Source: Glaucostegus cemiculus (lineage: Eukaryota). From it: a stretch of DNA of 64,000 bases. The stretch is taken from assembly GCA_976551045.1 (NCBI GenBank), contig CDPCPM010000012.1:40548001-40612000 (forward strand), in the 5' to 3' direction. The position numbers and the translations under genes were made by a program. The stretch's first letter is position 1. Every line of letters starts with the position of its first letter. The notes beneath the pieces are model-generated. The model was not told the DNA's origin and did not search any database. It saw only the letters and a program-made list of their open reading frames with translations. Shown here piece by piece: positions 7,050 through 63,933 of the stretch.

Positions 7050-9835
7050 ATTCTGGACGTAAGGTGATAGAGAGTACCCCGGTGGCTGTACCCCTTGTCA
7101 ATAGGTACCGGGGTTTAGATGCTTCAGGAAGGCCAGGCAGGGGGGCAAGAGAGGAGGTGGAGTGGCACTGTTGATCAGGGAGAGTGTTACGGCTACGGAA
7201 AAGGTGGAAGCTGTGGAGGGATTGTCTACGGAGTCCCTGTGACTGGAGGTTAGGAACAGGAAAGGGTCCGTAACGTTACTGGGTGTTTTTTATAGGCCGC
7301 CTGATAGTGACAGGGTTATTGAGGAGCAGATAGGGAAGCAGATCCTAGAAAAATGTGAGAATAACAGAGTTGTGGTGATGGGGGATTTTAATTTCCCAAA
7401 TGTCGACTGGCGTCTCCAGATGGTGAGGGGTTTAGATGGGCTGGAGTTTGTTAGGTGTGCTCAGGAAGGGTTCTTGACACAGTATGTGGATAGTCCTACG
7501 AGGGGAGAGGCTGTGCTGGATTTGATACTGGGTAATGAACCTGGTCACGTGTCAGATCTCTCGGTGGAAGAACATTTTGGTGATAGTGACCATAATTCTA
7601 TCTCCTTTATGTTGGCAATGGAGAGGGATAGGAACAGACACACTAGAAAAGTGTATAATTGGAGTAGAGGGAATTATGAGGGCCTCAGGCAAGAAATTGG
7701 AAGATTAAATTGGGAGCAGATGTTCTCCGGGAAAAGTACAGAGGATATGTGGCAGATATTCAGGGGGTATTTGGGTGGAGCTCTTCACAGACATGTTCCA
7801 TTGAGACAGGGAAGTCGTGAGAGGATGTGGGAACTGTGGTGCACGGAGGCTATCATAAAGCTAGTTAAGGAGAAAAGAAAAGCGCACAAAAGGTACAGGG
7901 AGCTAGGTAATGTTAGTGATCTGGAAGATTACAGGGCTAATAGAAGGAACTTAAGAAAGAGATTAGGAGAGCCAGAAGGGGACATGAGAAGGCCTTGGTG
8001 GGTAGGATTAAGGAAAACTCCAAGGCGTTCTACAGGTATGTGAAGAGTAAGAGGATGAGATGTGAAAGGATAGGGCCTATCAAGAGTGGAAGCAGGAAAG
8101 TGTGTATGGATTTGGAAGAAATAGCGGAGGTGTTAAATGAATACTTTACTTCGGTATTCACTACGGAGAAGGAGCTAGGGGATTGTAGTGGGGGCTTGCA
8201 GCAGCCAGAAAGGATTGAGCAGGTGGAAATTAGAAAGGAGGAGGTGCTGAAACTTTTGGAGAGTATTAAGTTAGATAAGTCGCCGGGGCCGGACGAGATG
8301 TATCCCAGGTTGCTGTAGGAGGCGAGGGAGGAGATTGCGGAGCCTCTGACAATGATCTTTGTGTCGTCGATGGAGACGGGAGAGGTTCCGGTAGATTGGA
8401 GGGTTGCGGATGTTGTGCCGTTATTCAAGAAGGGGAATAGGGATAGCCCGGGGAATTATAGACCGGTGAGTCTTACCTCGGTGGTGGGTAAGCTGCTGGA
8501 GAGGATCCTGAGAGGCAGGATTTATGAACACTTGGAGAAGTATGGCATGATTAGAAATAGTCAGCATGGTTTTGTCAAGGGCAGGTCCTGTCTGACGAGT
8601 CTTATAGAATTTTTTGAAGAAGTGACCAAGAATGTTGATGAACGGAGATCGGTAGTTGTAGTGCATATGGATTTTAGCAAGGCTTTTGATAAGGTGCCAT
8701 ATGCGAGGCTTATGGAGAAGGTGAGGAGACACGGGATCCAGGGGGACATTGCGGTGTGGATTCAGAATTGGCTGGCCCACAGAAGGCAAAGAGTGGTTGT
8801 GGAAGGGTCATATTCTGAGAGGAGGTCGGTGACCTCCGGTGTGCCTCAGGGATCTGTGCTGGGACCTTTGCTGTTTGTCATCTTTATAAATGACCTGGAT
8901 GAGGAAGTGGAGGGGTGGGTTAGTAAGTTTGCTGACGACACGAAGGTTGGGGGAGTTGTGGATAGTTTGGAGGGCTGTCAGAGGCTACAGAGGGACATAG
9001 ATAGGATGCAGAGTTGGGCTGAGAAATGGCAGATGCAGTTCAACCCAGATAAATGTGAAGTGGTTCATTTTGGTAGGTCGAATAGGTTGGCAGAATATAG
9101 AATTAATGGTAAGACTCTTGGCAGTGTGGAGGATCAGAGGGATCTTGGGGTCCGAGTCCATAGGACGCTCAAGGCGGCTACGCAGGTTGACTCTGTGGTT
9201 AGGAAGGCGTATGGTGTATTGTCCTTCATCGGTCGAGGGATTGAATTTAGGAGTAGGGAGGTAATGCTTCAGTTGTATAGGTCCCTGGTCAGACCCCACC
9301 TGGAGTATTGTGTTCAGTTCTGGTCGCCTCACTACAGGAAGGATGTGGAAGCTATAGAGAGGGTACAGAGGAGGTTTACGAGGATGCTGCCTGGAATGAG
9401 GAGCATGCATTATGAGAGCAGGCTGCGGGAACTCGGCCTTTTCTCCTTGGAGAGGAGGAGGATGAGGGGGGACCTGATTGAGGTGTATAAGATGATGAGA
9501 GGTATGGATAAGGTATATAGTCGGAGGCTTTTCCCCAGGGCTGAAATGGTGGCCACAAGAGGACATAGGTTTAAGGTGCTGGGGGGAAGATATAGGGGAG
9601 ATGTTAGGGGTAAGTTTTTTACTCAGAGAGTGGTGAGTGTGTGGAATGGGCTGCCGGAGATGGTGGTGGAGGCGGATACGTTAGGGTCTTTCAAGAGACT
9701 GTTGGATAGGTACATGGAGGTAAATAAGATAGAAGGTTATGGGTAAGCCTAATAGTGTGGGGACATGTTCGGCACAGCTTTGTGGGCGGAAGGGCCTGAA
9801 TTGTGCTGTAGGTATCTATGTTCTATGTTCTATGT
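7050..9835 (+). mobile_element. Young CR1 LINE: ORF1 remnant fused to near-complete ORF2 (APE endonuclease plus RT), inactivated
   Basis: EN motifs GGGVAL, YRPP, MGDFN, LDL, SDHN; RT motifs PGPD, NYRPVSLTS, QHGF, DFSKAFD, GVPQGSVLGP, FADD; tail (ctatgtt)n at about 9815-9835. Lesions: TGA 7240-7242, frameshift near 7950, TAG 8316-8318. Confidence 0.95.
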
Positions 9836-10329
9836 AATGTGGCTGAAACCATTATGTGGCAGTGAAGGGCCACTGCACCTTAGTGGTCTTTTCTTTCAAA
9901 TAAGCTGTTAACCCAAGGTGTACAACAAAGGATCCATGGTGAGTTGAAGAAGAGCAATCCTAACGTTGTGATGAGTGATCATCGATCAGGAATGTTAATG
10001 CTGTTTCTCTAACCACAGATACAGCCTGACCTGCCAAACATCTCCATCATTTTTTGGCTTTATTTTATGATAGCTTATTTCTAATGCAACTTGCATTGTA
10101 TAACTGAAGTATACACTAATATCCTAATTGGATATTTTTGTCCCTCAGTGGATATACAAGGTGTCAGCAATGATCACCACCCTGTTGATGGTTGTGGTGC
10201 AGTACTGAATCGCTACAATCCATGCAGGGAAGTTACTCCTCTATTACTGCTCATAAAGAGGACTGATGTTCCCATAAACCTGTTTCCATTCTCAAAGTTG
10301 AGACTGCTGTTAAAGGAGACTTTATAAAT

Positions 10330-11899: not shown

Positions 11900-13090
11900 T
11901 AGCCTGTGATAACTGCTGCTGTGTGAGACGTTATCACAGTAAACTGAAGATGAGTACATAGGGATGTGCCCAGCTGCAGAGATGTTAAACCAAGCCAGAA
12001 ATGTTGGGTGGCCAGCAGAAGGAAGTACATGTGGTAAACTGAAAGACAACAGGCAGAACAGGGGGAGTACAATCAAGGTGTCTACACTGTTACAAGTATA
12101 ATGGACAGCAACATGGAGCAGCTGAAGAACATTTCTGCACAGTGTGCACAATGAACAGGATATGAAATGTCTGTGGAGTGGATGAGATGGAGTATGCCGA
12201 GAGGGTCAGATTCAGGCTACCATCTGGACACAATATACTTGGTTTGTGAGGTCTGGCCTATGGAAGGAACACCCACTAGCTGCATCTAGATGCAAAGGCA
12301 ACCAGTGACATTTCAACTTGACTCTGCGGCAATGTATAACATCTTCCTAAAGCAAAGTAGTGTTTTTGAGGCAATGCAATCATTGCATGAGCTGTCAAAG
12401 TACAAGTGAACTATGCTAAAGCCAGCTGGGAGATGTCATCTGAAGGCAGTGTATCCAAAGAATGTGGATTTCATTGTAGTTGACCAGCCATACTTGGAAG
12501 CAGCATGATTGGAATCAGGAACTTGGAATCAACACCAGTCCTGATGCAGGGTTTCGACCTGATACGTCGACAATTCCTACCCCCTCCCCTGCCCTACAGA
12601 TGCTGCTCTACCTGCTGAGTTCTTCCAGCAGATTCTTTGTTGCTCCAGGTTCCAGCATCTGCAGTCTCTTGTATCTCCATACTTGGAAGCAGTACTGTTT
12701 TGCAAGTGAGATTGGTAAAGGCACACCATGTTAGGATCATGAAGATTGCTTCAAAAGAAGCAATCATTTCAGCACTGATTAAAGGTTTGTTCATGGAACA
12801 GAAGTGCAAAAAAGGTGCAGGTGAGCAAGTGGAGGAAGATGCTACAGCAGAGGTACTAAAGACCCGCCCCTACCAAGTTGTGGTAAGTGCAGTGAATATG
12901 AAGCCCACATCAGAACTGTAGTAGAAGACAGCAGTGCCATTATGCACACATACACCATCTAGATCATGCAGAGTCATGGCAGGAGGACATCTTGGATTGT
13001 TGGAAAAATGTAGGACCAGGTCTAACAAAACAGTTCTTCAGTCCAACAGTACATGGAGAACCTTATGCAGGCATGAAATGCAGAGACTAG
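11900..13090 (+). mobile_element. Degenerate Gypsy LTR-retrotransposon gag/protease remnant
   Basis: VTFQLDSAAMYNI at about 12305-12345 (aspartic protease D[S/T]G-like), followed by VDFIVVD and PILG-like segments; many stops. Confidence 0.5.
12504..12676 (+). mobile_element. Short Penelope-like-terminus element with hammerhead-like motif
   Basis: Perfect 16-bp TSD ccatacttggaagcag (12488-12503, 12677-12692); motif cagtc-ctgatgc-agggtttcgacct-gatac-gtc-gac at 12536-12571. Confidence 0.8.
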
Positions 13091-19420: not shown

Positions 19421-21075
19421 ATGAATCAGAATCATTTTATTGTCACAACCATATATACACACACAGTATGCATAGGAGCGAGATACCGTCCTCCACAGGT
19501 GCATGTCATATTAAATAACAAGGAGAAGAGACACACTGACACACACTAAAAAAACATTAAAACCACGAAAATTAAATTAAATTCTGCAGGTTAAATAAAT
19601 AGTTTTAAAGTGAACGAACTGGTAGCGGGCATTTAAAGTGCTGGTGCATTTCTGAGCGCCTAGCACCCTTTAGTGTTAACAGGGTAGATGGAGGAATGAG
19701 AGAGTTCACAGTTCTGATGGCTTGCGGGAAGAAGTTATTGCACAGCCTCGTCGTTCTCGCCCTGATGCATTTGAGCCTCTTTCCAGATGGCAAGAGTGTG
19801 AAGAGATGATGGGATGGGTGAGAAGGATCCGACATTATATTTTTGGCCTTCCTAACACAATGGTCCTTGTATATGTCTGCAATGGAGAGAAGAGAGACAC
19901 CTATCATTTTCTCCACTGCCCTTACTATCCTCTGGAGGGACTTCCATCCAGCAGCTGAGCAGCTCCCAAACCAGACAGTGATACATTGAGTTGGGATGCT
20001 CTCGATGGTCCCTTTATAAAAAGTTTTCATTATCAAGGGATGGGAGTTCACTTTCCTCAGTCTCCGCAAGAAGTAGAGGCATTTCTGGGCTTTCTTAGCG
20101 AGGGCCGTGGTGTTAGTGGACCAGGTCAGGTCATCAGTGATGTGCACCCCCAGGAACTTGGTGCTGCCTACTTGTTCTACAGCAGACCTGTTGATGGTCA
20201 GCGGGGCGTGCACACGGCGACCCCTCCTGAAATCCACTATCATCTCCTTGGTTTTTTCCACATTCAGGGAGAGGTTGTTGTCCCTGCACCACATGGCTAG
20301 TTGCTTCACCTCCTCTCTGTAGTCCGACTCATCGTTGTCCGTGACAAGACCCACCACTGTCGTGTCATCAGCGAACTTAACAATGCGGTTGGAGCTGGAT
20401 CTGGCCATGCAGTCGTGAGTCAACAAGGTGAACAGGAGCGGTCTAAGCACACAACCCTGCGGGGAGCCAGTGCTCAGTGTGATGGTGCTCGAGATGTTTT
20501 CACCAATTTTGACCGACTGTGGCCTGCAAGTAAGAAAGTCCAGTATCCAGTTGCAGAGAGATGTGTTAAAGCCCAGTGCACTCAATTTACTGATCAACTG
20601 TTGTGGGATGATGGTATTGAATGTGGAGCTGAAATCAATGAACAGTAGTCTAATGTACGGATCCTTCTTTTCCAAGTGGTATAGCGCAGAGTGCAGGGCA
20701 GAGGAAACCGCATCATCTGTGGACCTATTTGCCCGATATGCATACTAATGAGGATCGGGGAAGGATCGATCTGATGTGCTTCCTGATTAGCCTCTCAAAG
20801 CATTTCATGACAATCGGTGTTAGAGCTATGGGACGGTAGTCATTCAGACACATTGCAGGTGACTTCTTCAGAACAAGTATGATAGTGGCAGATTTGAGGC
20901 ACTTTGGGACAACAGCCTGCTGTAGGGAGATGTTGAAGATGTCTGCAAGTACATCTTTTAGCTGGTCCGCACAGTCCCCAAGTACCCGTCCCGGTATGTT
21001 GTCCGGTCCCGCAGCCTTTCGAGGGTTGACCTGTGACAGGGCTCTCCCCACACTGATCGGGGTGAGATGAAGATG
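19421..21075 (-). mobile_element. Young 5'-truncated Rex1/Babar non-LTR retrotransposon, RT nearly intact
   Basis: ORFs 20725-21051 ([29 protein letters not shown]) and 19605-20675 ([27 protein letters not shown]); one frameshift region near 20750; tail gtgacaataaaatgattctgattcat. Confidence 0.92.
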
Positions 21076-21459
21076 AGAACATGAACAGTCCCATCAGCCC
21101 CTTGAGCCTGCATTGTAGCAGGTCTGCAGAAACTCGGGCGTGAACCATTTGAGATTAAAATTAAAGGAACCAGTTGACTACAGAGGAAACATTTGGCATT
21201 TTGTCACATCTGGTATGTTGTCAGGATCCCCCAAGGCACTTTGCAGTTAATGAGCAATAGTTATTGCTATTGTGCTGCCAAATAACAGCTATTTGTAGTG
21301 TGACCCACCCACCTACACTTACCTGCAGCCCTAAACAGCAAGTAAAATGCGGCTGGTTAATATGGTAGAAATCCAATCATGTGGTACAGCTTTTGTGTGT
21401 TTTGGTCTCCATTTGAGCTCAGTGTTTGTCCATGGTATGCAATTACACCTAGAGTACAT

Positions 21460-22075
21460 GAAACATAGACTAGCAGAGCACATGAACAGGCCCTTGGGCC
21501 AACCATGTCTATGCTGACCATGATGCTAATTTAAACTAATCCCATCTGCCTGTACCAGGTCCATATCCTCCACCCCGGCCTGTTCATGTCCCTGCCTAAA
21601 TGCCTATTAAATATTGGTTTTGTATCTTCTGCCACCACCTCCCCTGACCATGTGTTCCATGCACCTACCACTCTCTGAGGAAAAATCTTGCCTGGCCTTT
21701 AAACTCCACTCCTCTTCCCCACCCCCCCCACCCCCCACAAATCTATGCCCTCTATAATTTGGCATTTCCTCCCCAAGAAAAAGACCATCTACTCTATTTA
21801 TGCCTATCATAACTTTTCTATCAGGTCACCCTTCAACTTCTGATGCTCCAGAGAAAGCAATCCAAGTTGTCCGACCTCTCTTTATAGCTGATACTGTCTA
21901 ATCCAGGCAGCGTCCTGGAGAAACTCTTCCGCACCCGCTCCAAAGCCTTCACATCCTTTCTGTAATGTGGTGACCAGAACTGCACACAGAACCCCAAAGG
22001 TGGCCTATCCCAAGTTTTATACAGCTACAACATGACTTCCTGACTATTATAGGCAATGCCTCGACCAATGCGGCA
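21460..22075 (-). mobile_element. Decayed CR1 3' fragment
   Basis: Reverse VQFWSPHYRKDV (acatcctttctgtaatgtggtgaccagaactgcac) plus CR1 tail. Confidence 0.8.
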
Positions 22076-23516: not shown

Positions 23517-24095
23517 ATGACTTGATAGTGACCGCCTTCAAGCTGTATTATATCACTCTGGAAATTCGACCGGGCATTTTCCATTGTATTTACCCTTGCA
23601 TTCCTGACAAGATATCTGCTTCAGTTACTTGCAATGCTCCATTGTCTAAGGAATGTCTTATGCTGGGAGCAACAATGTTTGAGGCAACAATGTTATTTTA
23701 AAGAAAGATGTCCCAGTCAAATCAGGTGTGACTCTTCTAAGATTTGTACTTTACCTACTCTCACTCCCAGTGTGTATTTGTTTCAGAGACATGTCTCCAC
23801 CCCGCAGACTGCACCTCCGCACCCATACCAATCCGACACCTTATCTTAGTGCACTCAAGCACAGACTGCTTCATTAACTGCAGAATTATAACAGGGACTG
23901 AAAACTGGAAATATCAGTTAACTTTCCCAATTTAGACCCTATGATGAATAGAAGGTCACAGATGAATCAGCTGATGGTGGCTGGGTGTCTACACCTTGCT
24001 AGGGAATTTCGTGAAAGGTTGCCCTAGAGATGAGGTGATTGGCTTCTAACAAGTACAGCAAATCTTCCTTTGTGCTGGATGTGACTCCAGTGGTG

Positions 24096-24309
24096 ACACA
24101 AGAGACTGAAGATGCTGGAATCTGGAGCAACACACAAAGCACTGGGGGGGCTCCATGGGTCAGGCAGCATCTGTGGAGGGAAATGGACAGTCGACATTTC
24201 GGGTTGAGACTCTTCACCTGGACTGATAAAGGGTCTCAACCCATTATGTTGACTGTCCATTTCTCCATGGATGCTGCCTGACACGCTGAGTTCCTCCAGC
24301 TTTTCTGTA
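24096..24309. mobile_element. Palindromic Penelope-like-terminus element with two opposed hammerhead-like motifs
   Basis: Inverted arms meeting at about 24225; 14-bp TSD tgactYcagtggtg (24082-24095, 24310-24323). Confidence 0.8.
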
Positions 24310-24473
24310 TGACTTCAGTGGTGTTTTCTTCCTGAGCCTCATGTACCTTTAACAGGCTCATAAAAAATTGCTACCCTGACACTGTAATTCTGAAATTGCT
24401 GGCAGCCTGGCCAAATCAACCATCGTGCTTTGAGAACAATGACCATGAGCCTTTGGAAACCAATGTAGCAAAA

Positions 24474-24746: not shown

Positions 24747-25134
24747 TAAGGCAGACTTTGTTATCACTTCAGTATTGTGACACTGATCTTGAGATTCAGA
24801 ACAGAAGGACTGTTATCTAATGGCAGGCTGTTAAGGCCTGTGATAAAACTAAGAACGTGAGAAACACCACCTGCACTGTCAGGTGGTCAGTTGGCTAAAA
24901 AGCATAGTGTTGACCCACAAGCAGGAGGTTACTGGGGAAAGAAGTTATTGCAATCGGCCAGCTTGGTTCACTGCAACAGAAGGAAGGCCTGCTCCACGTG
25001 AGGAAGTGCAGAAGAATGAGTGACAAAGGATGGGCCTGCCACACTCAAACTGGTGACTCATTTCTGCTCCTCTTATTGGAGGTTTTGCTCATGACTGAGT
25101 AGGAGTAGAATCACATCTTGTTCACTGAGTGAAA

Positions 25135-25285
25135 GTAATAAACTTGCAGATGTTGGTAATTTGAAATAAAACAGAAATTTTGGAAACACTCGGCAGGTCA
25201 GGCAGCATCTGTGGAAAGAGAAACAGGGTCCCAGGTCTGAAACATTAGCTATTTCTCTTTCCACTGATGCTGCCTGATCTTGTTT
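25135..25285. mobile_element. Older palindromic Penelope-like-terminus element
   Basis: ggtcaggcagcatctgtggaaagagaaa...tttctctttccactgatgctgcctga inverted arms; related pieces at about 9990-10065 and 29490-29530. Confidence 0.6.
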
Positions 25286-26927
25286 ACTGGAACCAAGTAA
25301 ATGGAGCTGTTGTGAAATAGTGCTCGATGATAAGGATGTCCAAATGCTGTATGGTAACAAGAACCTCAATCATCTGTAGTTCAACTCTCTTGACTATGTT
25401 TTGATCAAGGCTGTGATGAAGTTTGGAGGTGTGTTGTCGTGTCATAGCCCAAAATGGGCATTGGTGTGTGCGTTATTGGTGAATGAATTCTGCCTGTTGG
25501 CACTTTCAATGATACTTCCATTGCTTTACTGATGAATGAAGATCACTGTGATATTTATTACCTGTACCAACTCTTTAAATCATTTACACATTTGAATACA
25601 AATAGATTGAAACATCCTGTCTCCCAGTTCTGAAAGTAGAGTCAGCAAGAAAGATGTCTATGTAATGTTAGTAGGAATTTAAATTGCAAAGTAATGATCT
25701 GTGTGTGATTACCTGAGATATACAACTTGAAACTTTGTTTTGGGGAGTTAAGAAAGTTTCCAAAACAATATAGCTTATATTTAGCCATTTTAGAAACATT
25801 TACACAACAGTTTGAACTTGGTTTCCAATATGCATTCCCATAACTTGCTGGAGCCGAGGTCAATAAATAATTGTACAGTGTTTCACAGAATACTGTAAAC
25901 AGAAGGCTTGGTACAATTTTACATGAAAATGACAAGATGGTGCTAAGTGTAAACTAAAAGCATTTCCTTGGTTGGTAGCACAAATACACTAGTTAGCTCC
26001 TCCAAAATTCAGTTTCATTTACTTAAGTGGATTGAAGTTCAGAGGTAGTGTGCAATGTACTAGTGTCATCATGTAGCGCAATTAGCACTACAAAGTGGGG
26101 AGTGAATTTCCAGGCAACAGCATCTAAAATAAGATTTGTAAGTAAAAACCTGAAGGAACAAGACGTGTCTTTAATTTTCTACATGTTCTTCAAATTATGA
26201 CTTTACTAGCCATTAACAAATTAATTGGAAAGGGGATGTTTTGTTTTAACAAGAGTTTAAAAGCTGCACACTTGAGTAAAATGATTTTCAAACAGGTAAT
26301 GGCTTGGGAGAGAAAATCTGTTTCTGCAGATTGACTGCTAATGGGCAATGTCATCAGTCAATTAACTTTATTTTATAAATTATTTTTTTAGATGTAAGGG
26401 ATTGATCTGGATCACATGGTCTTTCAGGAAGAGATTTCCAAGTTCTAATTGATTTAAAAAAAACAATCTGGATGCTACCCATTACTGTGATGTCTCACTT
26501 ATGTTTTCCATATATAACCAGAACACCAAAACAAAGTCCTAGATCACAGATCTTTTTTCCAGCATTTCACAATGGCCAATGGCTCAGCTCCAGAAGTTTT
26601 CTTTATGACGTAGACAAAGGTGTTGCCGCCTTGTCCGTGGGGAATGCCAGGCGCTACATGATACATTCCTGACCCTCAAATTTTAGCATTGGTTTTAGCA
26701 TATTCACAACTCCGATTGTCTTCCCTTCTCCTCCAGTGCCTTGTGACAAAACAAAACATTCATTTATTTATTTTCTTAAAGAATTCTTTTGAACTAGCTT
26801 AAGCAAAAGAAATTGCAATTAGCTCTCAAACCATAAAAAATCAAGCTGAAAACATCACTACCCTATTTTAAAGTTCCCTTTCCCATGCATGTGGATAGCT
26901 CAGCAAAAATCCAGCAAACAAACTAAT

Positions 26928-27158: not shown

Positions 27159-27711
27159 AGAAATTCACATTGGTTTATATCTAAATATAGTGACAAAGTT
27201 GTGAGAGTATGTTGAATTTGCTTTTAAAATTAATTCCATTGTGGTCAACTACTACATGACCAGGATGATCTGACATAGCTGGCACAAGCCAAATAACAGC
27301 ATAACAGTTCTTTTTCTATGAATTATAATACTTTGCTGGACAATTACAGAGACTCGAGATATGAAAACAGAAAAGTTGAAACTGAGAAGGAAAATTTTGT
27401 GGTACCTGGAGGTTACTTTTTGTCATTTCTCTCTGGAGGTTAAAGCAACTACAGGCTGGCAAGTAAGCCTGCCTAAAATCCCTTCCATTGAAATGAGTGA
27501 AAAGGTAATTCAGTGAACTGTGTAAAGAGCACGTGATCAGTCCTACCAAAACTGGTGCTTAAAGGTCAGTAAAAACAAAAATGAACCATGGGGATAATTG
27601 ATAGATTACTGTATGAATACAGCCCTTTCACAAAAGGATCCTTCCCTTTCATAGACACACATTTCCAGCACCTTTTAAAGCGCTTTCAGAATTTGTTCCA
27701 TTTAGAAATGG

Positions 27712-29134
27712 TTCCTTCAGGCAGACACAGCATGGATTCAGGAAAGGCAGGTCCTGTTTGACAAACTTACTGGAGTTCTTTGAGGATATAACGAGTGCAG
27801 TTGATAGAAGGGAACAAGTGAATGCTGTACATTTGGATTTCCAGAAGGCATTCAGTAAGGTGCTGCATAAAAGACTTACCCATAAAATAAGGACGCATAG
27901 AGTTGGGGGGTAATGTATTGGCATGGATTGAGGGTTGGTTAACCAATAGGAGGCAGAGAGTTGGGATAAATGGGTGTTTCTCTGGTTGGCAATCAGTGGT
28001 GAGCAGAGTGCCATGTATCTAAATTTGCTGATGACACTAAACTGAATGGAAAAGCAAATTGTGCAGGGGTTGCGGAGAGTCTGCAGAGAGATATAGATAG
28101 GTTAAGTGTGTGGGCAAGGGTCTACCAGATGGAGTACAATGTTGGTAAATGCAAGGTCATCCACTTAGGAAGGAAAAATAAAAGATCAGATTATTTATTT
28201 AAATGGTGAAAGATTGCAGCATGCTGTTGTGCAGAGGGACTCAGGAGTGCTTGAATATGAATTATAAAAGGTTGGTTTGCAGGTGAAACAGGTTATCAAA
28301 AAGGCAAATAGAATATTTGCCTTCATTGCTAGAGGGATTGAATTTAAGAGCAGGGAGGTTATGCTGTAACTGTACAGGGTCCTGGTGGGGCTGCAGCTGG
28401 GGTACTGCATGCAGTTCTGGTCTCCTTACTTGAGGAAGGATATGCTGGCTTTGGAGGAGATTCACCAGGTTGATTCCAGAGATGGGGGTTAGTCTATGAT
28501 GAGAGATTGAGTCACCTGGGACTATACTCGCTGGAATTCAGAAGGATGAGAGGGGATCAGAGGCAGGAAGGTTGTTCCCAATGGTACGTGAGGTTAGAAC
28601 TAGGGGACATAGCCTCAAGATTGGGGAGAATAGATTTAGGATGGAGAAGAGGAGAAACTGCTTTTCCCAGAGAGTAGTGAATCTGTGGAATTCTCTGATA
28701 TTGGTGTCGGTTTGTTATTGTCACTTGTACCGAGGTACAGTGAAAAACTTGTCTTATAAACCGATCGTACAGGTCAGTTCATTACACAGTTCAGTTACAT
28801 TGAGTTAGTACAAAGTGCATTGATGTAGTACAGGTAAAAACACTAACAGTACAGAGTAAAGTGCCACAGCTACAGAGAAAGTGCAGTGCAATAAGGTGCA
28901 GGGTCACAACAAGGTAGATCATGAGGTCAGAGAAGCAGTGGAGGCTACCTCATTAAATATATTTAAGACACAGTTAGATGGATGTTTGCATAGTAGGGGA
29001 ATTAAAGGTTATGAGGAAAAGGCAGGTAGGTGGAGCTGAGTCCATGGCCAAATCAGCCATGATCTTAATGCATGGCAGAGCAGGCTCGATGGGCCAGTTG
29101 GCCTACCCTGTTCCTACTTCTTATGTTCTTATGT
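27712..29134 (+). mobile_element. Decayed CR1 RT/3' region with nested Rex 3' end
   Basis: QHGFRKGRSCLTNLLEFFE, DFQKAFSK, KFADDTK; tail ttcttatgttcttatgtt. Confidence 0.85.
28700..28927 (-). mobile_element. Rex1/Babar 3' end nested in CR1
   Basis: ggtttgttattgtcacttgtaccgaggtacagtg interrupts the CR1 between gaattctctg and cagagaagcagtggaggc. Confidence 0.8.
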
Positions 29135-30237
29135 TCTTTTTGCATTGTGTTCTTGCTTTGCTGCTATCATCAAATTATAGAATTGTTATGGCACTGAAGG
29201 AGGTCACTCAGCCTACTGAGTCTGTGCTGGCTCTAGCCGGCTCTTTGTAGAACAGTTCAGTTATTCATTCCCCTGCTCTATCCCCATAACATTCCAAGTT
29301 GTTTTCCCCATCCAGTACATATCTATTTCACATTTGAATATACCGAATGACTGTTTCACCAACCTTCACAAGGATGAGTTGCAGATCATGACTACTTTCT
29401 GCGCTAAAATGATTTTCTTCACATTCTCCTGTAATTTTTGCCCATCGCTTTGGATCTGTATCCTGCAGTCCTTGAACCATTCACTATTAAGATGCTGCCT
29501 GACCTGCTGAGTTTCTCCAGCAGTATTTTTTTGAACAGCTTCTCCCTGTTTGCCTACCTTAACTTGCTGTGATCCTTTGATCACTTCCATCAAATGTCTT
29601 CTCAGCCTTATGCTCCAAGGAGAACAATCCCAGGTTTCCCACTCTATCCTTGTAAATCTCCATGGCAACCTGCATCTATTTGGCAAAATGTCTCCCAGAA
29701 TCAAACATAGTTAGATATATACTACCACTGCTAAATTCTAATTAAGAGATAGTTGCTGTTGAAGCATGCAGAGAAGCATTAACCAAATTTTCGTGATCCA
29801 CCACTTGGCTCAAGCTGCAGCTTTTATTTTACACAGTTTAATGACTGAACAATCTGCAATTATCATTTTATCTTTTCATGTACATTAGATTCTGCTTTAA
29901 CAGTTCAGATATTATATAATTAGTCCAAACTACAACATTGTGTCACACAAACCAAGTGACCTGCTTCACTTAATCTGAGAGTACAGTTAAAAGTGACCAT
30001 AGTCTTGCCATGCATCTGTTTGCAACAAAATGTTGAATGCACAATTTGATCCCCAGAAGGTGTCTGAAGCAGATGGTTCATCAGTATAATGAAAACAAAG
30101 ATTTATACCATGCTGATGTTGTGTGTCCAGATCTCACCTGTGCAAAATCACAGAACACCATTGCAACTTTATGTGTTACCTCAGTTCTGAAATCAAGACC
30201 TATGTTGGTTGTTCTTGAATCAGTCCAAAAATTAGTC

Positions 30238-34644: not shown

Positions 34645-35810
34645 ATTGGTTTATTATTGTCACATGTACAGTGAAAAGCTTTTGTTTTACATGCCATCCA
34701 GACAGATAATTCCATACATAATTGCCTACTGCCGAAACAGGTCTGAGGTGGATGCCATTTCCCTGGCCCTACACTCATCTCTGGAGCATCTGGACAGTAA
34801 AGACACCAACATTAGACTATTGTTTATTGACTACGGTTCCACTTTCGGTACTATAATTCCAAGTAAGTGCATCACCAAACTCCAGGGCTTGGGACTCAAC
34901 ACCTCCCTTTGCAACTGAATCCTTGACTTTCTGACCAACAGATTACAATCACTGATGACAGACAGCAACACCTCCAGCACAATTATTCTCAACACTGGTG
35001 CCCCACAAGGCTCCGTCCTCAGCCCCCTACTCTACTCCCTATACATTCATGATTGCGTAGCCCTAACCCCATCTACAAGTTTGCAGATGATGCCTCCATA
35101 GTGTGCTGTATCTCAAATAGTGATGAGTCGGAGTACAGGAAGGAGATAGAGAGCTTAGTGACATGGTGTCATCACAACAATCTTTTCCTCAATGTCAGCA
35201 TAGCAAAAGACCTGGACATTGACTTCAGGAAGGGGGGGGGCGGTGCACATACTCAATTGTTCTGAGGTTGAGAACATCACCAATAGCTTGCCCAGGTCCA
35301 GTCATGCAGATGCCATGGCCAAGAAAGCTTACCAGTGCCTCTACTTCCTCAAGAGGCTAAAGAAATTTGGCAGCACCCCGTCAACCCTCACCAATTTTTA
35401 TCAATGCACCATAGAAAGCATCCTATCTGGATGCATCACGGCTTGGTATGACAACTGCTCTGTCCATGACCGCAAGAAACTGCAGAGAGTTGTGAACACA
35501 GCTCAACACATCACGGAAACCAGTATCGCTTCCATGGACTCTGTCTTATCAACTTGCTGCCTTGGTAAAGCAGCCAGCATAATCAAAGACCCCACCCAGC
35601 CTGGTCATTATCTCTTCTCCCCTCACCCATCAGGCAGAAGATACAAAAGCCTGAAAGCACATACTACCGAGCTCAAGGACAGCTCCTATCCCACTGTTAC
35701 AAAACTATTGAGTGGTTTCCTAGTACAATAAGATGGACTTTTGACCTCATAATTTACTTCGTTATGACCTTACACCTATTGTCTACCTGTACTGCACTTT
35801 CTCTGTAGCA
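34645..35810. mobile_element. Rex1/Babar copy with inverted structure (3' terminus on minus, RT body on plus)
   Basis: 34645-34720 is the reverse 3' terminus; 34721-35810 is + strand RT ([25 protein letters not shown]) ending inside the 3' UTR. Confidence 0.8.
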
Positions 35811-39651: not shown

Positions 39652-39759
39652 GTGGTTGAAGAATCCTGATGCAGGATTTCGACCTGAAACTTTGACAGTT
39701 CCTTCCCCCCACAGATGCTGCTCGACCTGCTGAATTCCTCCAGCAGATTGTTTGTTGCT
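39652..39759 (+). mobile_element. Short Penelope-like-terminus element with hammerhead-like motif
   Basis: 13-bp TSD caaaattccattt (39639-39651, 39760-39772); ctgatgc-aggatttcgacct-gaaac at 39666-39690. Confidence 0.75.
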
Positions 39760-40258
39760 CAAAATTCCATTTATGTTGCTTCTTTCACAACCTCAGAATG
39801 TTACAAAATCACTTACAGCTAGATAGTATTATTGAAATGCAGTCAGACACTACATGGAAAACAAAACGGCTTGTTTCCAAACTACAAGTTCCACCATTTA
39901 GACATTAGTTAATGGATAATTGTTGGCTGAGGGATGGGGCGGACTACTGCAGGATCCTTTACCCAGATGGGGGCCTCAACTTAGAGTTTCTTCCAAAAAA
40001 TGGCACCTGCAATAGAGCAGCACTCCTATGGTGCTGTACTGAAGAATCAAGTGGGAATGTTTGTTCTGGAGTGGGAAGATAGATGTGAGAGTGCTTCCAA
40101 TGTACCAAACCTGCTTTTTTTTTAACTTTATTCATTCATGAAAGATGTGTCATTGGCATAACCAGCATTTATTATTGCCCATTCTTAATTCTGCTGTAAG
40201 ATGACCATGAGCAACATTCCAGAATTCAGCAGCGCTTCCAGGGAGGGGTTTCCAGAGT

Positions 40259-55494: not shown

Positions 55495-55907
55495 CTTCAA
55501 GCTCCTTTGCTCAGCTTTCCATTATCCCTCATTTACTTAATGTTCCTGGGTGTCATCAGCTTGCTCATGCATGCTGACAACATTGGACTCATTTATAGAT
55601 TTATGTACAAGTATAATGCAGTGATAGCAAAAAACAATCTGCTGGAATAACTGAGCAAATCGAGCAACATCAATGAGAGGGATGGAATTGTCGATGTTTT
55701 TGGTCAAAACATTGTACTGCGATGATAGCTTCCATTTATCCAATGGATAACTGGAGGCAGTGCAGCTGCTGCAGTACTAGTGTCAAGTAAACAGTCTGAC
55801 AAGACAAGAATGGGCAATGGAGAAGTAAACCTACATGAGCAAGCTGATGACACCCAAGTGCACCAGGTAAACGAGGGGTAATGAAAGCTGAGGAGAGGAA
55901 ATTGAAG
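55495..55907. repeat. MITE/foldback-like element with ~70-bp inverted arms
   Basis: Left arm ..ctcagctttccattatccctcatttac..tgggtgtcatcagcttgctcatg (to 55569) is the reverse complement of catgagcaagctgatgacaccca..gtaaacgaggggtaatgaaagctgag (from 55834); a Penelope-like piece is nested at about 55625-55715. Confidence 0.7.
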
Positions 55908-56543: not shown

Positions 56544-59066
56544 AATTATTGAACTAAACTGTTTGGAACCTGGGCATTCTCTTCAATACTAAGCTGAGCT
56601 CCAACTTATATCTTGGCATAACAAATCTTGCCAAATTCCACCCCCAGAAGATTGTCCATCTCTCTCCATATTATCCAAATTTCATCCAAATTAAACCATT
56701 TGCTACCTCTAATCTCAACTTTTCCAATATTGCCATTTGCTGTGCTCTTTCTCCATTGAGTGTAAACTTCAACTCATCTGAATTTAGCTGTCTGTATCCT
56801 ACCTCCAATTAATTAAATTCATCCATCCTGTGTTCCCTGATCTGCATGACTGCCTCTCTGAGCCCCCGCACCTCCAATTGGAAATGCTCAGCCTTGTAAA
56901 TAAAAATATGGAATGTTATGAGGGAAATATTCATTGAATGCAAAACATTTCAAAGAGGATTTTAGGTCATTGGGTAAAACAACAAAGTGCAAATGTTGTC
57001 CCCAAAACAAAATATTAGTTAGTTTCAAAGGATTGATATGCACAGAAATAACCCATGGCTGTCACTAACACAACTTTTTCTCCTTTCAATTGTAAATGTC
57101 ATATTTTCTTTAATAATCTCAGTGCCTAATTAGTTCATAATTAGCATGATTTAGCATGATTGTTACAGTTGCTACTTTTTTTTATACCTTTATATCTTCA
57201 TGTTGATAAAGCACTGGCACATCAATTAAAATCAGGAAGATTTTATTCCCTCTATCAACAAGAAAAATGCATTTTTATAGTACCTTACACAGCCTTGAGA
57301 GGTTTTCAAGCATCTTTCTAAACAAGTGCTTTAGAGGTTTTGCCGCTGTTGTAATTTATGGCACAGCTAATTTGTATTCAACAGCATCCCACAGACAACA
57401 ATGTGATAATGATCACGATGAAATGCTAAACCTATATAAAGTATTAATTTAACCCCAGATGGAGTATAGTATCAAATTCTAAAAGGGTATAAAGGTTTTG
57501 GAGAGAATACAGAAGATATTTGTTAGGACTCGAGTGTCACCCTGGATTTTTAAGCTGAAGACCATGGAGTGGATGTGAACTCACACCCTGCTGACTAAGT
57601 ACGCAATCTATAAGAGTAGTTGAATGGGTTGCCATTTAGAATACGTTTTGTACAGGCTTTGGCCTGAAAGGCTTTGAGTGGTTTGTTTCCATTTGACGCT
57701 CTTCTTAGCTTTAACCTTTCCATTCTTGAACTGGTGCCATACACTTAATTTCAGATGATGCCAAGTGATTATACTGTGAAAGAATGTCAAATCATTGTCA
57801 CCAAACTGAATGGTTTCTCTGTTCTGAAAACTCTGAGGCCGATAGGGACATAGCCACTTGTGAATAGTCATATTTTCCATTTTGGTTTTCCTTTTTCTAA
57901 AATTCTCAACTTAATTCAGAATCTCACACAAAGTATTTGAAATAAAGGTCAGAACCAAAGAACATCTCTTACTGAAGAAAACACTCATTTCTACTTTTTC
58001 CTGGTTCTGGATATAAAGCAGAGATCCTACTACTTCACTACACAGGTGAAAATTAGTAAGCATATTCATTTTTCAATTTATAAGCTGATTAATCTTCTTG
58101 ACATTTGCACAGGATCATCGTCATACATTCTTGCTTTAAGTGTGTAATGATTCTGCTGTCATTTACACTAGATTTGCTGATCATTCTGGTTTTGGCTGAT
58201 TTGCATTTGTTATTGTAGCGTTCAAATCTGTCTAAAATATCAACAGTAGGAGGTTTAAAACTTCAGCAATTCCTTACTTACCATGAAATAATTTAGGTGT
58301 GGATTAGAAATCAGACATTCCCTTGGTAATGAGTTTGGAATGAGGTTGAAATACATTGGTTTTTGTTCTTTCTAAGGGGTTATGGTAACAAAATTCTGGG
58401 GGATACTGGCTGTTTCTTCATGTTTCTGATTCTGGTGTACTTTTGAGGCTGACACTAGTTTGCCTAGATATCCTCTTTTATTGCTTGTGGTCCTTGTGCC
58501 TGCATGACATACAATGCTGATGCTTAATAGAGAGACCTAATGTTATTTGATTGAGGGTCCACCAGAAAGGATGTGGCACTCAAGAATGAATTGAGCCTGT
58601 GATGTCTTCCAGTTATTTATGCAGCAACAAGGATGCTAATCATACAACAGATAAGTAGGTTTTCAGAAAGTGAGGCTGCTCCTGATCCTTGGTCCTGCGT
58701 GAAAGGGCCTCTGCCATCTTTCCATTCCCTGGACTTTATAGCGTTGTCCCAGAAGGATTGAGCTAAGCCTCCACATTCTGCAGAACCACTCCAAAGAGTT
58801 AATGAAGCAGGAGGAGATGAGAGGGATGGCATGTCTGTAGGATGTGTAGGATGGAAATGTGGGAATCAGCAATCTTGAACTCCCACAATCATCCCAGTCA
58901 CCATCTGTCTAGAGGTGTATGAATTAAAGGGTAATACTCAGCTTATATCCTACTCCTGCTGAGGAAACATTCAGGTACGAAGCCACTGCTTAGTCTTCAA
59001 GATGGATTCAGTGAGCACTTTTAACACAGATACTTAACAATAAAGGAATCGGTTTAGAAACATCCA

Positions 59067-59182
59067 GACACAATAGACTGCAAATGCTGAAATCTGGAGG
59101 AACACACAAGGTGCTGGAACTCACCGGGTCAGGCAGCATCTGTGGAGGGAAATGGACAGTAGATGTTTCATGTGGAGACCCT
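59067..59182 (-). mobile_element. Penelope-like-terminus element, single arm
   Basis: gacacaatagactgcaaatgctg..gggtcaggcagcatctgtggagggaaatggacag..gagaccctt, same family as 24096. Confidence 0.75.
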
Positions 59183-59737
59183 TAGAAATAAGTTGACTGT
59201 TATGTAGGTAAACATGAAAACCAATATGCATACAGCAAGTTCCCCAAAACACTAATAATCAATGGTATTGTAGATATGCTTTGGACGTTGTGAAGATATG
59301 GTTGGAGTTATTGACAGTCTCATAATACATCCATTGAAAATCTTTAATTTTTTTTTCAACTTGCTGCCATGTTGGAATATTATGGTGTCAGATGCAAGAG
59401 CTGGATAATAGGATTTAAATTGTTTCATAGAGTAGTATAATATGAAACAGTGTCCTTTATGCTGGATTGAAGTGTATGTTTAGTTTAAATTCTGCTGCTA
59501 TATTCATCATCCCATAACATTGTGCTGGGATGTTATGGGCTAATGATATTGGGATACTTGGGATGGAGTGGCTTTTATTTGCTCCTGATTATTTCTACCA
59601 CTTACTTGAACGTTCTTAGGCTGACTTGGAATGTACAATGTCATTCCCAATTGCAATATCTCTGCATCTTGAGTACAGAATTCACCCAGAACATAAAAAT
59701 ATTAATGAAGAAAAGACTGTAAATGCCACTAAATATC

Positions 59738-60087: not shown

Positions 60088-61721
60088 AGATATGGCGCTT
60101 AATGTGATGGTAAGGACAGTCACTGATTTAGATTTGTTATATTTTACATTAAAACTGTTTAGCCTTAAAATATAAAATTGTGGTGTAAAATATTGTTATT
60201 TGAAAAGGAAGATTACATATAATTCACAATTTATTTAAAAGTTTATGCACAGAATACTAGTGAGTGATGTATAATGTTTTTTTTGAGAAATTCTTATGCA
60301 ACCAGCATATTTATGCAACTGGCATCTCCCATTCCCCATGGGTGCTGGATGGCTGAAAGTATTCTGTACCCTGATCGTGTCATGGCAGATTTCTTGAAAC
60401 AAAGGATTTCTTTTGCTTTGCCTTATTGGACTATGCATATATGATTATTTTCTGTTTCAACCTTAGAAGCATACTTTATTGATCCTTATCTTTCTGCTAT
60501 TTCAAACAGGTGCTCATTCTAAAATGTTAGTATATTAGTGACAGTGAGAGACCAGAATACTGCTCTGACACTGCATTAAAAGGTTTAAACATGCACAGTT
60601 TTTGCATCTGACAATTTGTCGTAACAGCACAGATTGGCTGCTCCAATCATTAATACTTTAGGAGCCATTTCCCAACAGTGTTGTTGATAGATTTATCACT
60701 ATGCCATTAACCATGTCATTTCTCTCATCCAGAGTACCAAAACGTACTTAACATTGTTATCCTTTATGAGACAATTTGAATATTCTATGAATAACAGGAG
60801 TAACTTTGCAGTGCCTAGTTGACAAATTTGTAATCCATTATTAAAATTAAAACACTCTCCTCTAATGGAAATTAAGAGAAAAACTATTTTAACTGTGCTA
60901 CTTATGAGAGTTATAATCAATTTTTCTTACCTGTGATTGTAATAATTGGCCTGTACTGTTTTTACGATGGGGATGAGAACAAGGGCCCTGGGAATTAAAG
61001 ACCAGGTTGTGGCTTTCCTTTATCTAAATTCTGCAAATGTATCTATTGTAGTAAATGCAGTTTCAAAATGCTTGGTAATAACTCTTCTACAAGGAAAGTT
61101 TTGCATCCTCTTCCTGCCGCTTGGCCCTTCACCCACCACTCCCACACCCCATCTCTCCACCTTTTTCCCTCTTCTCCCCAACCCCCAATGCTGCCTATCA
61201 CTACTGGGCTGAGCCTTGCATTTTCAATGGTAGATTTCTGGAGGGCTCTCTTTGCCAGATGTCTCCCACTATTTGGCAGTCCAGGAATGCCTGGGTCGCT
61301 CCTCTTGGCATCTGTCCTCTAATGCAAAGGTCAGGAGACTCCCAGTTCCAGTGGCGTAGTGAGGAAGCAGTGCAATCACAGCATGGGAGAGGAAAGGAGG
61401 GGAAGGTCAGAGGTTCAGTGATCAGAGGGTAGCTCTGTCACCTTCTGACTCAAAGGCTGGCATTTAATCTTACACCAATCAGCAGGCTGGATTATTGGGC
61501 TAATATTTATTCTAATTAAACAATTAGTATGAAGCATATCTTCAAGGTATCACATTAACAACTGGATGCTTGGGTAATTCATGTCTTCTGGAAATGTAAG
61601 CTCCTCACAGTTACATTGGGTTGAGCATTTTTGATCTTTAATTGGAGGACTTTGCAACCTGCCAACAAGTCCTGATTATCACTGCTCACATTTCTTTGTT
61701 GACCAGGTGCTAGTAGTTTAA

Positions 61722-61990
61722 CGACAAATTGCAGGAGGAACTCAGCGGTCAGGGAGCATCTGTGGAGGGAATTGGACAGACAATGTTTTGGGTCATGACC
61801 CTTCACCTGGACTGGAAATGGACAGTCGACCTTTCAGGTCAAGACCCTGCATCAGGACTATCCAGATGAAAGGTCTCGACCGGAAACATCGATTGTCCAT
61901 TTCCCTCCACAAGTGATGCCTGACCCACTGAGTTCCCCAGCCTCTTGCTTTTTGCTCCAGATTCCAGCATCTGCAGTCTCTTGTGTCTCC
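61722..61990. mobile_element. Penelope-like-terminus element with three hammerhead-like units (two tandem on minus, one on plus)
   Basis: Units at about 61776-61814 (-), 61823-61860 (-) and 61861-61893 (+), within long inverted arms. Confidence 0.8.
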
Positions 61991-62369
61991 AAGGTGCCCA
62001 TTGTTATTCAACTTTCAGTCTATTTATTGCTAACATCGTGTTAGCCCATGAATTTTAAGTATGCTGAGGTGTATGACTCAGAGCAAACAATCTACTGTAC
62101 AACAAATGTAATCAATTCACTCAATAAACATGCTATTTGAGAAGCAGAGGAACCATCTACAGCATCTTTGATCAGTAATAGCTGTAATTCTGCCTGAAGA
62201 ATGCAGAAGTGAGTGATAGTTACTCATTAATTGTGGGCCTAAATTCAATATCTGTCAGTTATGGCAAGCTTGTTTGATAGGGAGCTTGCTCCATTATCCT
62301 GTGCTGTTTAGCTACAGGCTTATCACCACATACACTTTTGTTTTTAACACCGCCTCAGGTTCCACCTTT

Positions 62370-62718
62370 GGTTCCTTTTCTTGTCCTATTACCATTCCCT
62401 TTCACATTGAATCATCCACCGTTTTGCATTTAATCTCTCCTGCCTACACTTTCTCTCTCACAGATCCCTTGCCCCTTCTCCTACATTTGTACTTGCTATT
62501 AAACTCATTATGTCTTCAGGATGTTTCAGTTCTGGTGAAAGGTCATTAACCTAAAATATTAAACAAATAACTACAGATGGTGGAAATCTGAAATGAAAAC
62601 ATTAATTCTATTTCTCTGTTCACACATGCTGGTTGAACCTGCTGAGTGCTTCCAGCACCTTCAGTTTTTGTAACCTAGAATGTTAACATAGTTTCTTCCT
62701 TCACAGACAGTCTGACCT
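62370..62718 (+). mobile_element. Older Penelope-like terminal repeats, interrupted at 62718 and resuming near 63935
   Basis: cagttctggtgaaaggtcattaacctaaaat (decayed hammerhead-like motif); ctgacct|...|aagtatttccag is split by Rex and L1 insertions. Confidence 0.55.
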
Positions 62719-62743: not shown

Positions 62744-63712
62744 TTTTAAACCTAAAATTTTATCAATAATTTCATCTTTATAAAGAAATGGAAAAGAAGG
62801 TATAGTAGCTTTTAAAAAATTTCTAATCTGCAAATATCGAAAGAAGTGTGATCTAGGTAAATTATATTTATTAGACAGCTGTTCAAAAGATGCAAAACAG
62901 TTATCAATGAATAGATCACAAAAGCATACTATTCCCTTCCTTTTCCATAAAGAAAAAGCTGTATCTAGTCTAGATGGTTGAAAAAAAAATAGGTTGTATA
63001 GGACTTGACAAAACAAATTTAGTCAATCCAAAGAATTTACGAAATTGAAACCATATTCGTAATGTATGTTTAATGATTGGGTTAGTCATATATTTACTTA
63101 ATTTGGTAAGTGCAAAAGGAAGTGAAGCTCCTAAAATAGAGAATAACGAAAATTCAAGTGTTGATTGATACTCAAGATGTACCCATTTAGGGCATTGAAT
63201 AACATTTAAGTCTTGTGTCCAAAAAATTAAATATCTGATATTGATTGCCCAATAATATAATCTAAAATTAGGCAAGGCCATACCACCATCCTTTTTCAGT
63301 TTTTGTAAACATTTCTTACTTAGTCTTGGATTCTTGTTCTGCCAAATATATGAAAGAATTTTAGAATCAACCTTGTCAAAAAAAGACTTTGGGATAAAAA
63401 TTGGAATCGCTTGAAATAAATATAAAAATTTTGGTAAGATATTCATCTTAATTACATTAATTCGGCCTATCAGTGATAAAGACATTGGAGACCACTTAGT
63501 AAGCGATTGTTTAACTTGGTCAAATAAAGGTAAAAAATTAGCTTTAAATAGATCCTTATGTTTATTAGTAATTTTAACACCTAAATACATAAAATAATCA
63601 GTTACCAATTTAAAGGGTAACTGGCTATAAATTGAGGTTTTCATATTCAGTGGAAAAAGTTCACTCTTATTAAAATTTAGTCGATAACCAGAAAAAACAC
63701 TGAATTGATCTA
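62744..63712 (-). mobile_element. L1-clade ORF2 fragment (late RT and C-terminal region)
   Basis: FSGYRLNFNKS, YLG, LSLIGRINVIKMNILPKFLYLFQ, GGMALPNFRLYYWA, FFRYLQIR; perfect 17-bp TSD aaactgaatggtttatt (62727-62743, 63713-63729); one frameshift near 62990. Confidence 0.9.
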
Positions 63713-63933
63713 AAACTGAATGGTTTATTATTGTCACATGTACTGAGGGACAGTGAAAAACTGCTTTGCATGCCATCTATACAGATCATTTCATCCTATC
63801 AGTACATTGAGGTAGTACCAGGAGAAAACAATAACAGGATCCAAAATAGAGTGTTACAGTTACAGAGAAAGTGCAGTGTAGGAAGATAATAAAGCGCAAG
63901 GCCATGACATGGTAGATTATATGCTCAGGAGTC
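63713..63933 (-). mobile_element. Rex1/Babar 3' end whose tail served as the L1 target
   Basis: ggtttattattgtcacatgtactgagg..agagaaagtgcagtg shared terminus. Confidence 0.8.

Follow-up and report, generated by a model that had tools for sequence, protein, structure and literature searches.

Minimal hammerhead ribozymes (min-HHRs) were defined by Cervera and De la Pena in 2014 in the terminal repeats (pLTRs) of metazoan Penelope-like elements (PLEs) (PMC4209133). The consensus given there includes an extra base before helix II, a G10.1-C11.1 pair, and palindromic 15.2/16.2 positions, and adenine at position 9 (A9) is kept in 56 of the 56 alignment rows examined, among which there is no cartilaginous fish (PMC4209133). 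As described in that report, min-HHRs do not cleave as monomers even when intact and cleave at a low level as dimers (PMC4209133); a review (PMC6765202) summarizes the work of Lunse et al. on dimer cleavage, and changes in the core are described as usually cutting hammerhead activity sharply (PMC3088659). Published insertions of endonuclease-bearing (EN+) PLEs combine partial tandems with a truncated, inverted copy next to them; one end bears a tail of 30-40 bp, and duplications are described as well (PMC8557442, legend to Fig. 2; PMC3846280). The pLTRs alone are reported to be able to drive integration in trans (PMC3846280), and the role of the hammerhead in EN+ PLEs has been called unclear (PMC8557442). 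For a PLE of Anolis, Frangieh et al. (2024) tied the tail to two internal reverse transcription start sites, described the ribozyme as protein-assisted, and reported that mutants left in vitro insertion unaffected (PMC11167929). Retrozymes derive from pLTRs according to Li et al., whose study includes one chondrichthyan genome (bioRxiv 10.64898/2026.07.22.740005), and PLEs are reported to have expanded in whale shark introns (bioRxiv 10.1101/443036).

Here we analyzed a 64-kb stretch of DNA from Glaucostegus cemiculus (referred to below as the window), in which positions 61722-61991 form a locus of ~270 bases made of three units of one repeat. The full repeat unit is ~135 nt long and consists of a minimal type I hammerhead motif followed by a body and an optional tail of ~40 nt. 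Judged from its layout, the repeat is most likely the pLTR of an endonuclease-bearing Penelope-like retrotransposon. Units 1 and 2 lie in tandem on the minus strand, spaced by 46 nt and 76% identical, and unit 3 lies on the plus strand, head to head with both (Table 1); the inverted arms are 78-82% complementary. The original prediction had placed a second tandem unit at about 61776-61814 and a third, inverted unit at 61861-61893, and both are borne out by the motif positions in the table. Tandem Repeats Finder reported no array at the locus. In the predicted fold, the whole locus forms a single long hairpin that pairs units 2 and 3 (-138 kcal/mol, z -9.5), with unit 1 in its loop. Because the units are just 76-82% alike and unit 1 deviates at position 9, the locus may stem from two events or from two templates.

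Table 1. Units of the focal locus and related pieces elsewhere in the window
Feature	Positions	Strand	Remarks
Unit 2	61722-61814	-	motif 61777-61814 and body; without tail, ends ~43 nt before full unit; reference offsets 1-92
Unit 1	61815-61860	-	46-nt partial tandem copy; motif 61823-61860
Unit 3	61861-61991	+	inverted full-length unit; motif 61858-61895, body, tail; offsets 4-135
Tail	61950-61991	+	only on the unit 3 arm; family's sharp 3' end at 61988-61991
Candidate decayed target-site duplication, left copy	61703-61718	+	partner 61990-62005; 11/16 match
Sister insertion	12488-12692	+	single full unit 12536-12679, position 9 = C, inside perfect 16-bp target-site duplication
Sister insertion	24080-24323	.	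head-to-head pair (24091-24310), one arm tailed; duplication 14/16
Decayed piece	25112-25290	.	short inverted second arm; possible duplication 13/16
Body fragment	29477-29531	+	without motif
Solo unit	39661-39769	+	position 9 = C
Decayed solo unit	55626-55710	-	
Solo unit with tail	59066-59183	-	front half of core absent
Divergent copy	62300-62670	+	motif 62527-62565, second piece 62580-62670, after pyrimidine-rich stretch
Weak, very decayed piece	9968-10056	+	E 0.017

Pieces related to the repeat were found by BLAST at 10 loci of the window (15 pieces), in keeping with the roughly ten pieces predicted from the letters alone. One of these is weak (10013, E 0.017); a control with the reversed window gave nothing under E 0.25. 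Seven of the 15 pieces start no more than 4 nt from the front edge of the motif, one of the seven being the reference itself and another, the copy at 62527, possibly extending further upstream. The sequence upstream of this copy is 72% pyrimidine, against a window mean of 50% (standard deviation, 7), and the stretch ends in AG right at helix I; no second copy of the pyrimidine stretch of 62300-62670 was found in the window. It may belong to the upstream part of the element or be a 3' splice site, such as has reportedly been described in Drosophila Penelope. Two further observations concern the surroundings of single copies. At 12504-12535, the duplication is separated from the motif by 32 nt with a weak likeness to a tail piece that is inverted and in part doubled; 1.4-4.6% of random 36-mers reach the same score. 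An inverted pair at 55495-55578 and 55825-55907 (80% over 84 bp) brackets the family stub at 55626-55710 and is possibly a MITE-like element of ~410 bp (55495-55907) into which the stub inserted.

We then placed the focal motifs on hammerhead numbering. The hammerhead parse proposed earlier for the minus strand of 61823-61860, the motif of unit 1, is confirmed: all five pairs of helix I and all four of helix II can form, each count including one G.U. Unit 1 carries a single core change, C at position 9 (C9), together with a G.G mismatch at 15.2/16.2. The core of unit 2 is changed at three positions (U4A, A6G, and G12A), and the motif of unit 3 combines U4A with a broken 10.1-11.1 pair. A Cervera-type min-HHR descriptor that allowed one core change matched unit 1 as its sole hit in the 64-kb window and gave no match in 40 Markov-resampled 64-kb controls, which is how the check for a minimal type I hammerhead turned out; requiring a perfect core left no match in the window. 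Rfam returned no hammerhead match up to an E value of 10, for either the whole window or the locus alone. An Rfam match to MIR856, whose 38.9 bits fall short of the gathering score of 297, was rejected, as it reflects the long hairpin alone. Taken singly, the motifs fold no better than shuffled sequences (z of -1.2, -0.2, and +0.9 for units 1, 2, and 3).

Eight motifs of the window could be aligned in register; the one at 59190 was excluded as the front half of its core is missing, leaving seven for scoring. Each of these seven carries at least one core change, in agreement with the earlier view that no copy has a perfect core and that the copies may be inactive; the focal copies are probably inert and unable to cut. 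At the four CpG pairs of the motif, 19 of 56 cells are changed, 16 of them by C>T or G>A; at the other positions, 20 of 168 cells are changed. Judged by these letters, CpG decay accounts for much of the damage to the motif. Because the CpGs of the motif include G12, 15.2/16.2, and C17, methylation decay would break the core quickly.

Position 9 stands out as an oddity. C occupies this position in three of the seven scored window copies, and among reads of related organisms over unit 1, A is present in only 41% of the DNA reads and 34% of the RNA reads; for these two reasons, C9 marks a subfamily and is not a private mutation. The U4A change is common to the motifs at 61777-61814 (-), 24188-24225 (-), and 61858-61895 (+), two of which also have A6G, and these motifs could be a second subfamily with an altered core. 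In the open-licence literature, we found no published description of a position-9 or U4A core variant, nor of shark hammerheads or fixed stub starts. As for the covariation expected of the stems, none above shuffles was seen among the seven close, decayed window motifs, whose score of 0.12 was equaled by 304 of 500 shuffles; the divergent 62527 copy, a single decayed one, shows two pair swaps, with A-U in place of G-C at 10.1/11.1 and U-A in place of C-G at 2.1/1.1.

We mapped four sequencing runs of related organisms on 61500-62200. In the run of raw DNA reads, the flanks had a depth of ~1.9 and the tail one of 41,500, giving a ratio of ~20,000-22,000 that is rough, given a relative's reads and thin flank coverage; in the same relative, depth over the motif was ~3,000-3,800 times that of the flanks. 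The tail (61950-61991) forms the depth peak, and the reads contain opposite-strand joints from 61724 to 61949/61952. Beyond the sharp 3' end of the family at 61988-61991, the sequence is unrelated and the loose read ends agree at just 0.32-0.38. At positions where the focal units deviate, the family letters in the reads are C/U at 15.2 (94%), G at 10.1 (83%), A6 (68%), C at 11.1 (58%), and G at 16.2 (54%), shares that lean towards the reference letter. The min-HHR layout (CUGANGA core, extra base, helix II, GAAA, two bases, NUH, helix I, and no helix III) is reproduced by the majority of the window family and also, among the variant rows listed, by the relatives' reads. The G10.1-C11.1 pair and the palindromic 15.2/16.2 are present in the family letters and broken in the focal units. 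Together with the descriptor match, these majority features support reading the motif as a minimal type I hammerhead.

We considered whether this likeness could be a chance resemblance within a repeat of some other kind, for instance a MITE or a satellite fragment. Such a resemblance would agree with the lack of an Rfam match, of a folding signal, and of covariation, but the descriptor matched none of the 40 controls, specific min-HHR features recur in the window majority and in the relatives' reads, and the PLE-type tail and the inversion are independent signs; we regard chance as having almost no probability. Scarcely more credible is that unit 1, lying exposed in the loop formed by the hairpin of units 2 and 3, still works as a variant ribozyme at this locus. 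Its two intact helices, its lone core change, its place in the hairpin loop, and the presence of C9 in other copies would speak for activity, but A9 occupies all 56 of the published min-HHR rows examined, and even intact min-HHR monomers are reported not to cleave (PMC4209133). Moreover, the G.G at 15.2/16.2 is private, with 94% of the relatives' reads differing; the tandem partner, unit 2, is sequestered and has three core changes; and the predicted fold of unit 1 is not that of a hammerhead.

The relatives' data also bear on transcription and on whether the insertion is shared. Per base read, the repeat was about five times rarer in a relative's RNA run than in the DNA run (4.0 versus 21.6), the two runs coming from different organisms. 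Retrozymes are marked by abundant unit-length RNA, linear and circular; in the RNA run, a single one in which short RNAs may be lost, the repeat was present, but the motif was not enriched, read ends did not accumulate, and the flanks were not covered. Sense-strand reads were in excess by 1.4-1.6 in one RNA run, a figure that hinges on how the library is read and was set aside. A search of sequencing runs listed none with half of the locus words and no RNA run, which says nothing about expression. In a relative, two contigs span the left and right junctions with 27 and 24 element letters, below the 31-letter rule, and suggest that the focal insertion is shared with that relative.

The insertion signatures argue for a Penelope-like origin. 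The two clear inverted insertions each have a longer arm, reaching offset 135, and a shorter one that stops at ~92-96; the longer arm, which has the tail, exceeds the other by ~39-43 nt. At sister loci, flanking duplications are well above chance: the pair at 12488/12677 matches at 16 of 16 positions, a level reached by 1 of 300 random pairs, and that at 24080/24308 at 14 of 16, reached by 0 of 300. The candidate at 25112/25274 has a null of 1%, and three further loci show no significant target-site duplication. The focal pair of Table 1 is not better than chance, as 14% of random pairs equal it. Because its duplication flanks the whole head-to-head pair, 24080-24323 was inserted as one piece, and the focal locus likely was as well. 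The traits of EN+ PLE insertions are thus present in the window: a partial tandem and an adjacent inverted truncated terminal repeat (61722-61991; 24091-24310), an optional one-end tail of 30-40 bp, and target-site duplications at the sister loci 12488-12692 and 24080-24323. This layout supports the Penelope-like origin that had been proposed for the repeat.

Based on these observations, we consider it about 85% probable that the pieces are truncated insertion products of an EN+ PLE, formed by copying from two sites, an early stop, and a second priming or template switch. An autonomous element elsewhere would supply the reverse transcriptase (RT) and the GIY-YIG endonuclease. Reverse transcription would start at either of two sites, ~95 and 135 nt behind the front edge of the motif, and these alternative starts would explain why arms occur with or without the tail; it would then stop early, close to the front edge. 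A second priming or a template switch would add the inverted arm and the partial tandem, and staggered cuts would leave the 14-16-bp duplication. For the motif of the parent element, cleavage after GUC would require a dimer paired via the palindromic 15.1-16.1 segment. After insertion, decay of methylated CpGs and drift would have broken the cores.

The original prediction had instead proposed a non-autonomous, retrozyme-like family. In this alternative, the repeat is a dedicated SINE-like or retrozyme-like element, a ~135-nt unit with its own transcript, PLE proteins acting in trans to copy it from short masters. It would accommodate the starts near the front edge of the motif in 7 of 15 pieces, the sharp 3' end, the lone unit within the perfect duplication at 12488-12692, and the fact that no window copy has an open reading frame (ORF) attached. 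It would also suit the reported integration of pLTRs alone in trans (PMC3846280) and derivation of retrozymes from pLTRs (bioRxiv 10.64898/2026.07.22.740005). However, two or more complete units do not follow one another head to tail here, the tandem copy being a partial one of 46 nt, and consecutive units have no complete hammerhead, units 1 and 2 carrying one and three core changes, respectively. With no array and no complete ribozyme, the focal locus lies outside the definition of a retrozyme. The scarcity of the repeat in the RNA run relative to the DNA run of a different organism, the flat motif depth and read ends there, and the possible longer upstream part of the 62527 copy also weigh against an independent short element. 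Arm-to-arm junctions, furthermore, vary widely among the relatives' reads, as expected if the end of an autonomous element had inserted independently in each case, in truncated form. We therefore do not uphold the retrozyme-like interpretation, which we judge unlikely, and retain truncated insertion of an EN+ PLE as the preferred reading.

We searched for a reading frame that would link the repeat to its presumed parent, as an EN+ PLE is expected to have, upstream of its 3' repeat, one ORF coding for both a telomerase-like RT and a GIY-YIG endonuclease. Pfam detected no GIY-YIG domain in 262 of the 350 window ORFs of at least 55 aa, its RT matches (8319-9743, 19608-20744, and 27617-28206) are LINE-like and distant from the repeat, and a six-frame motif scan of the window gave nothing PLE-like. 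One frame is open across the whole unit in two copies, 12537-12677 (+) and 24093-24224 (-), where an ATG directly follows a pyrimidine-rich CAG, and the parent ORF may begin with this frame. A protein search with this frame found no longer relative. A profile search gave 23 weak matches, of which most of the 20 short ones look like frames that happen to be open across further copies of the repeat and the three long ones were rejected as unrelated repeats. Ten of the weak matches were looked up and proved to be sequencing-run contigs, and no RT or GIY-YIG domain was present in the 22 of 23 that were scanned. Neither ORF P0021 nor the frame that lies upstream of the copy at 62527 returned anything further when used as a query. 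Pattern scans had no matches in viral, metagenome, and prokaryote contigs, collections that are not expected to hold this animal, so these blanks are uninformative. The anticipated link to RT or GIY-YIG did not emerge from the window ORFs covered by Pfam, the six-frame scan, or the protein searches, and because the repeat is not linked to a PLE reading frame, we infer its PLE membership from structure.

The same searches recorded other retroelements in the window. A LINE at 7243-9746 (+) has AP endonuclease and RT Pfam matches in three frames and is presumably CR1-like. LINE RT sequences with a PF09004 domain, which we take to be Rex1/Babar-like, are present at 19605-21093 (-) and 35204-35731 (+). 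A 268-aa open frame at 62970-63776 (-) has no Pfam match; to us it resembles the C-terminal portion of an ORF2 of the L1/Tx1 type.

The fixed edges and the abundance of C9 led us to a further, tentative proposal, which we hold to be possible though doubtful: instead of being randomly truncated, the stubs would be complete copies of the element's RNA leader, with fixed ends, and the C9 subfamily would have spread to thousands. The transcript would begin at the front edge of helix I, which we take to fit an initiator pattern, and reverse transcription would start internally, ~95 or 135 nt downstream; given such an internal start, each early event would yield a fixed-ended stub free of any ORF. 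With the C9 subfamily at thousands of copies, either the ribozyme would be dispensable for spread in vivo or there would be an unreported, tolerated core. If the stubs are indeed leader copies, then tens of thousands of them would form a natural record of PLE copying and of whether the hammerhead matters. The C9 subfamily and the fixed stub ends offer a way to test, from genomes, the role of the hammerhead in EN+ PLEs. Anyone screening such genomes for hammerheads will meet dead motifs by the thousand, and the focal locus itself is of small importance, being likely an inert remnant of a described class.

In comparison with known systems, the locus most likely belongs among the truncated products of PLEs. 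It resembles the animal non-LTR retrozymes (PMC7229834; bioRxiv 10.64898/2026.07.22.740005) in being non-coding, in its type I hammerhead, and in its kinship to the pLTRs of PLEs. As described, however, those retrozymes are head-to-tail complete units, typically of 150-450 bp, with working ribozymes and circular RNAs, whereas the focal locus has a 46-nt tandem fragment, broken cores, and an inverted arm. The pLTR of Poseidon PAc from Anolis carolinensis (PMC11167929) likewise has a hammerhead, then ~100 nt and a tail with two ends, and there, too, no RNA-seq read ends at the cleavage site were reported. PAc differs in being intact and tested in vitro, whereas the focal family is known from stubs alone and no protein starting in the focal unit was found. 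Relative to the complex insertions of EN+ PLEs (PMC8557442; PMC3846280), the focal stubs are free of any ORF remnant and not assignable to a clade (Neptune, Poseidon), and the duplications, 8-10 bp in the rotifer examples, are 14-16 bp here; the arrangement at 61722-61991 and 24091-24310, with the one-arm tail and the sister-locus duplications, is the same. With respect to the min-HHRs (PMC4209133), a large part of the focal family has C9, whereas A9 stands in 56 of 56 published rows. The family majority agrees with them in lacking helix III and in having the additional base ahead of helix II, a G-C closing pair, and a palindromic 15.2/16.2, and the family occurs as thousands of dispersed solo copies and as close opposite-strand pairs, as in schistosome, coelacanth, and frog.
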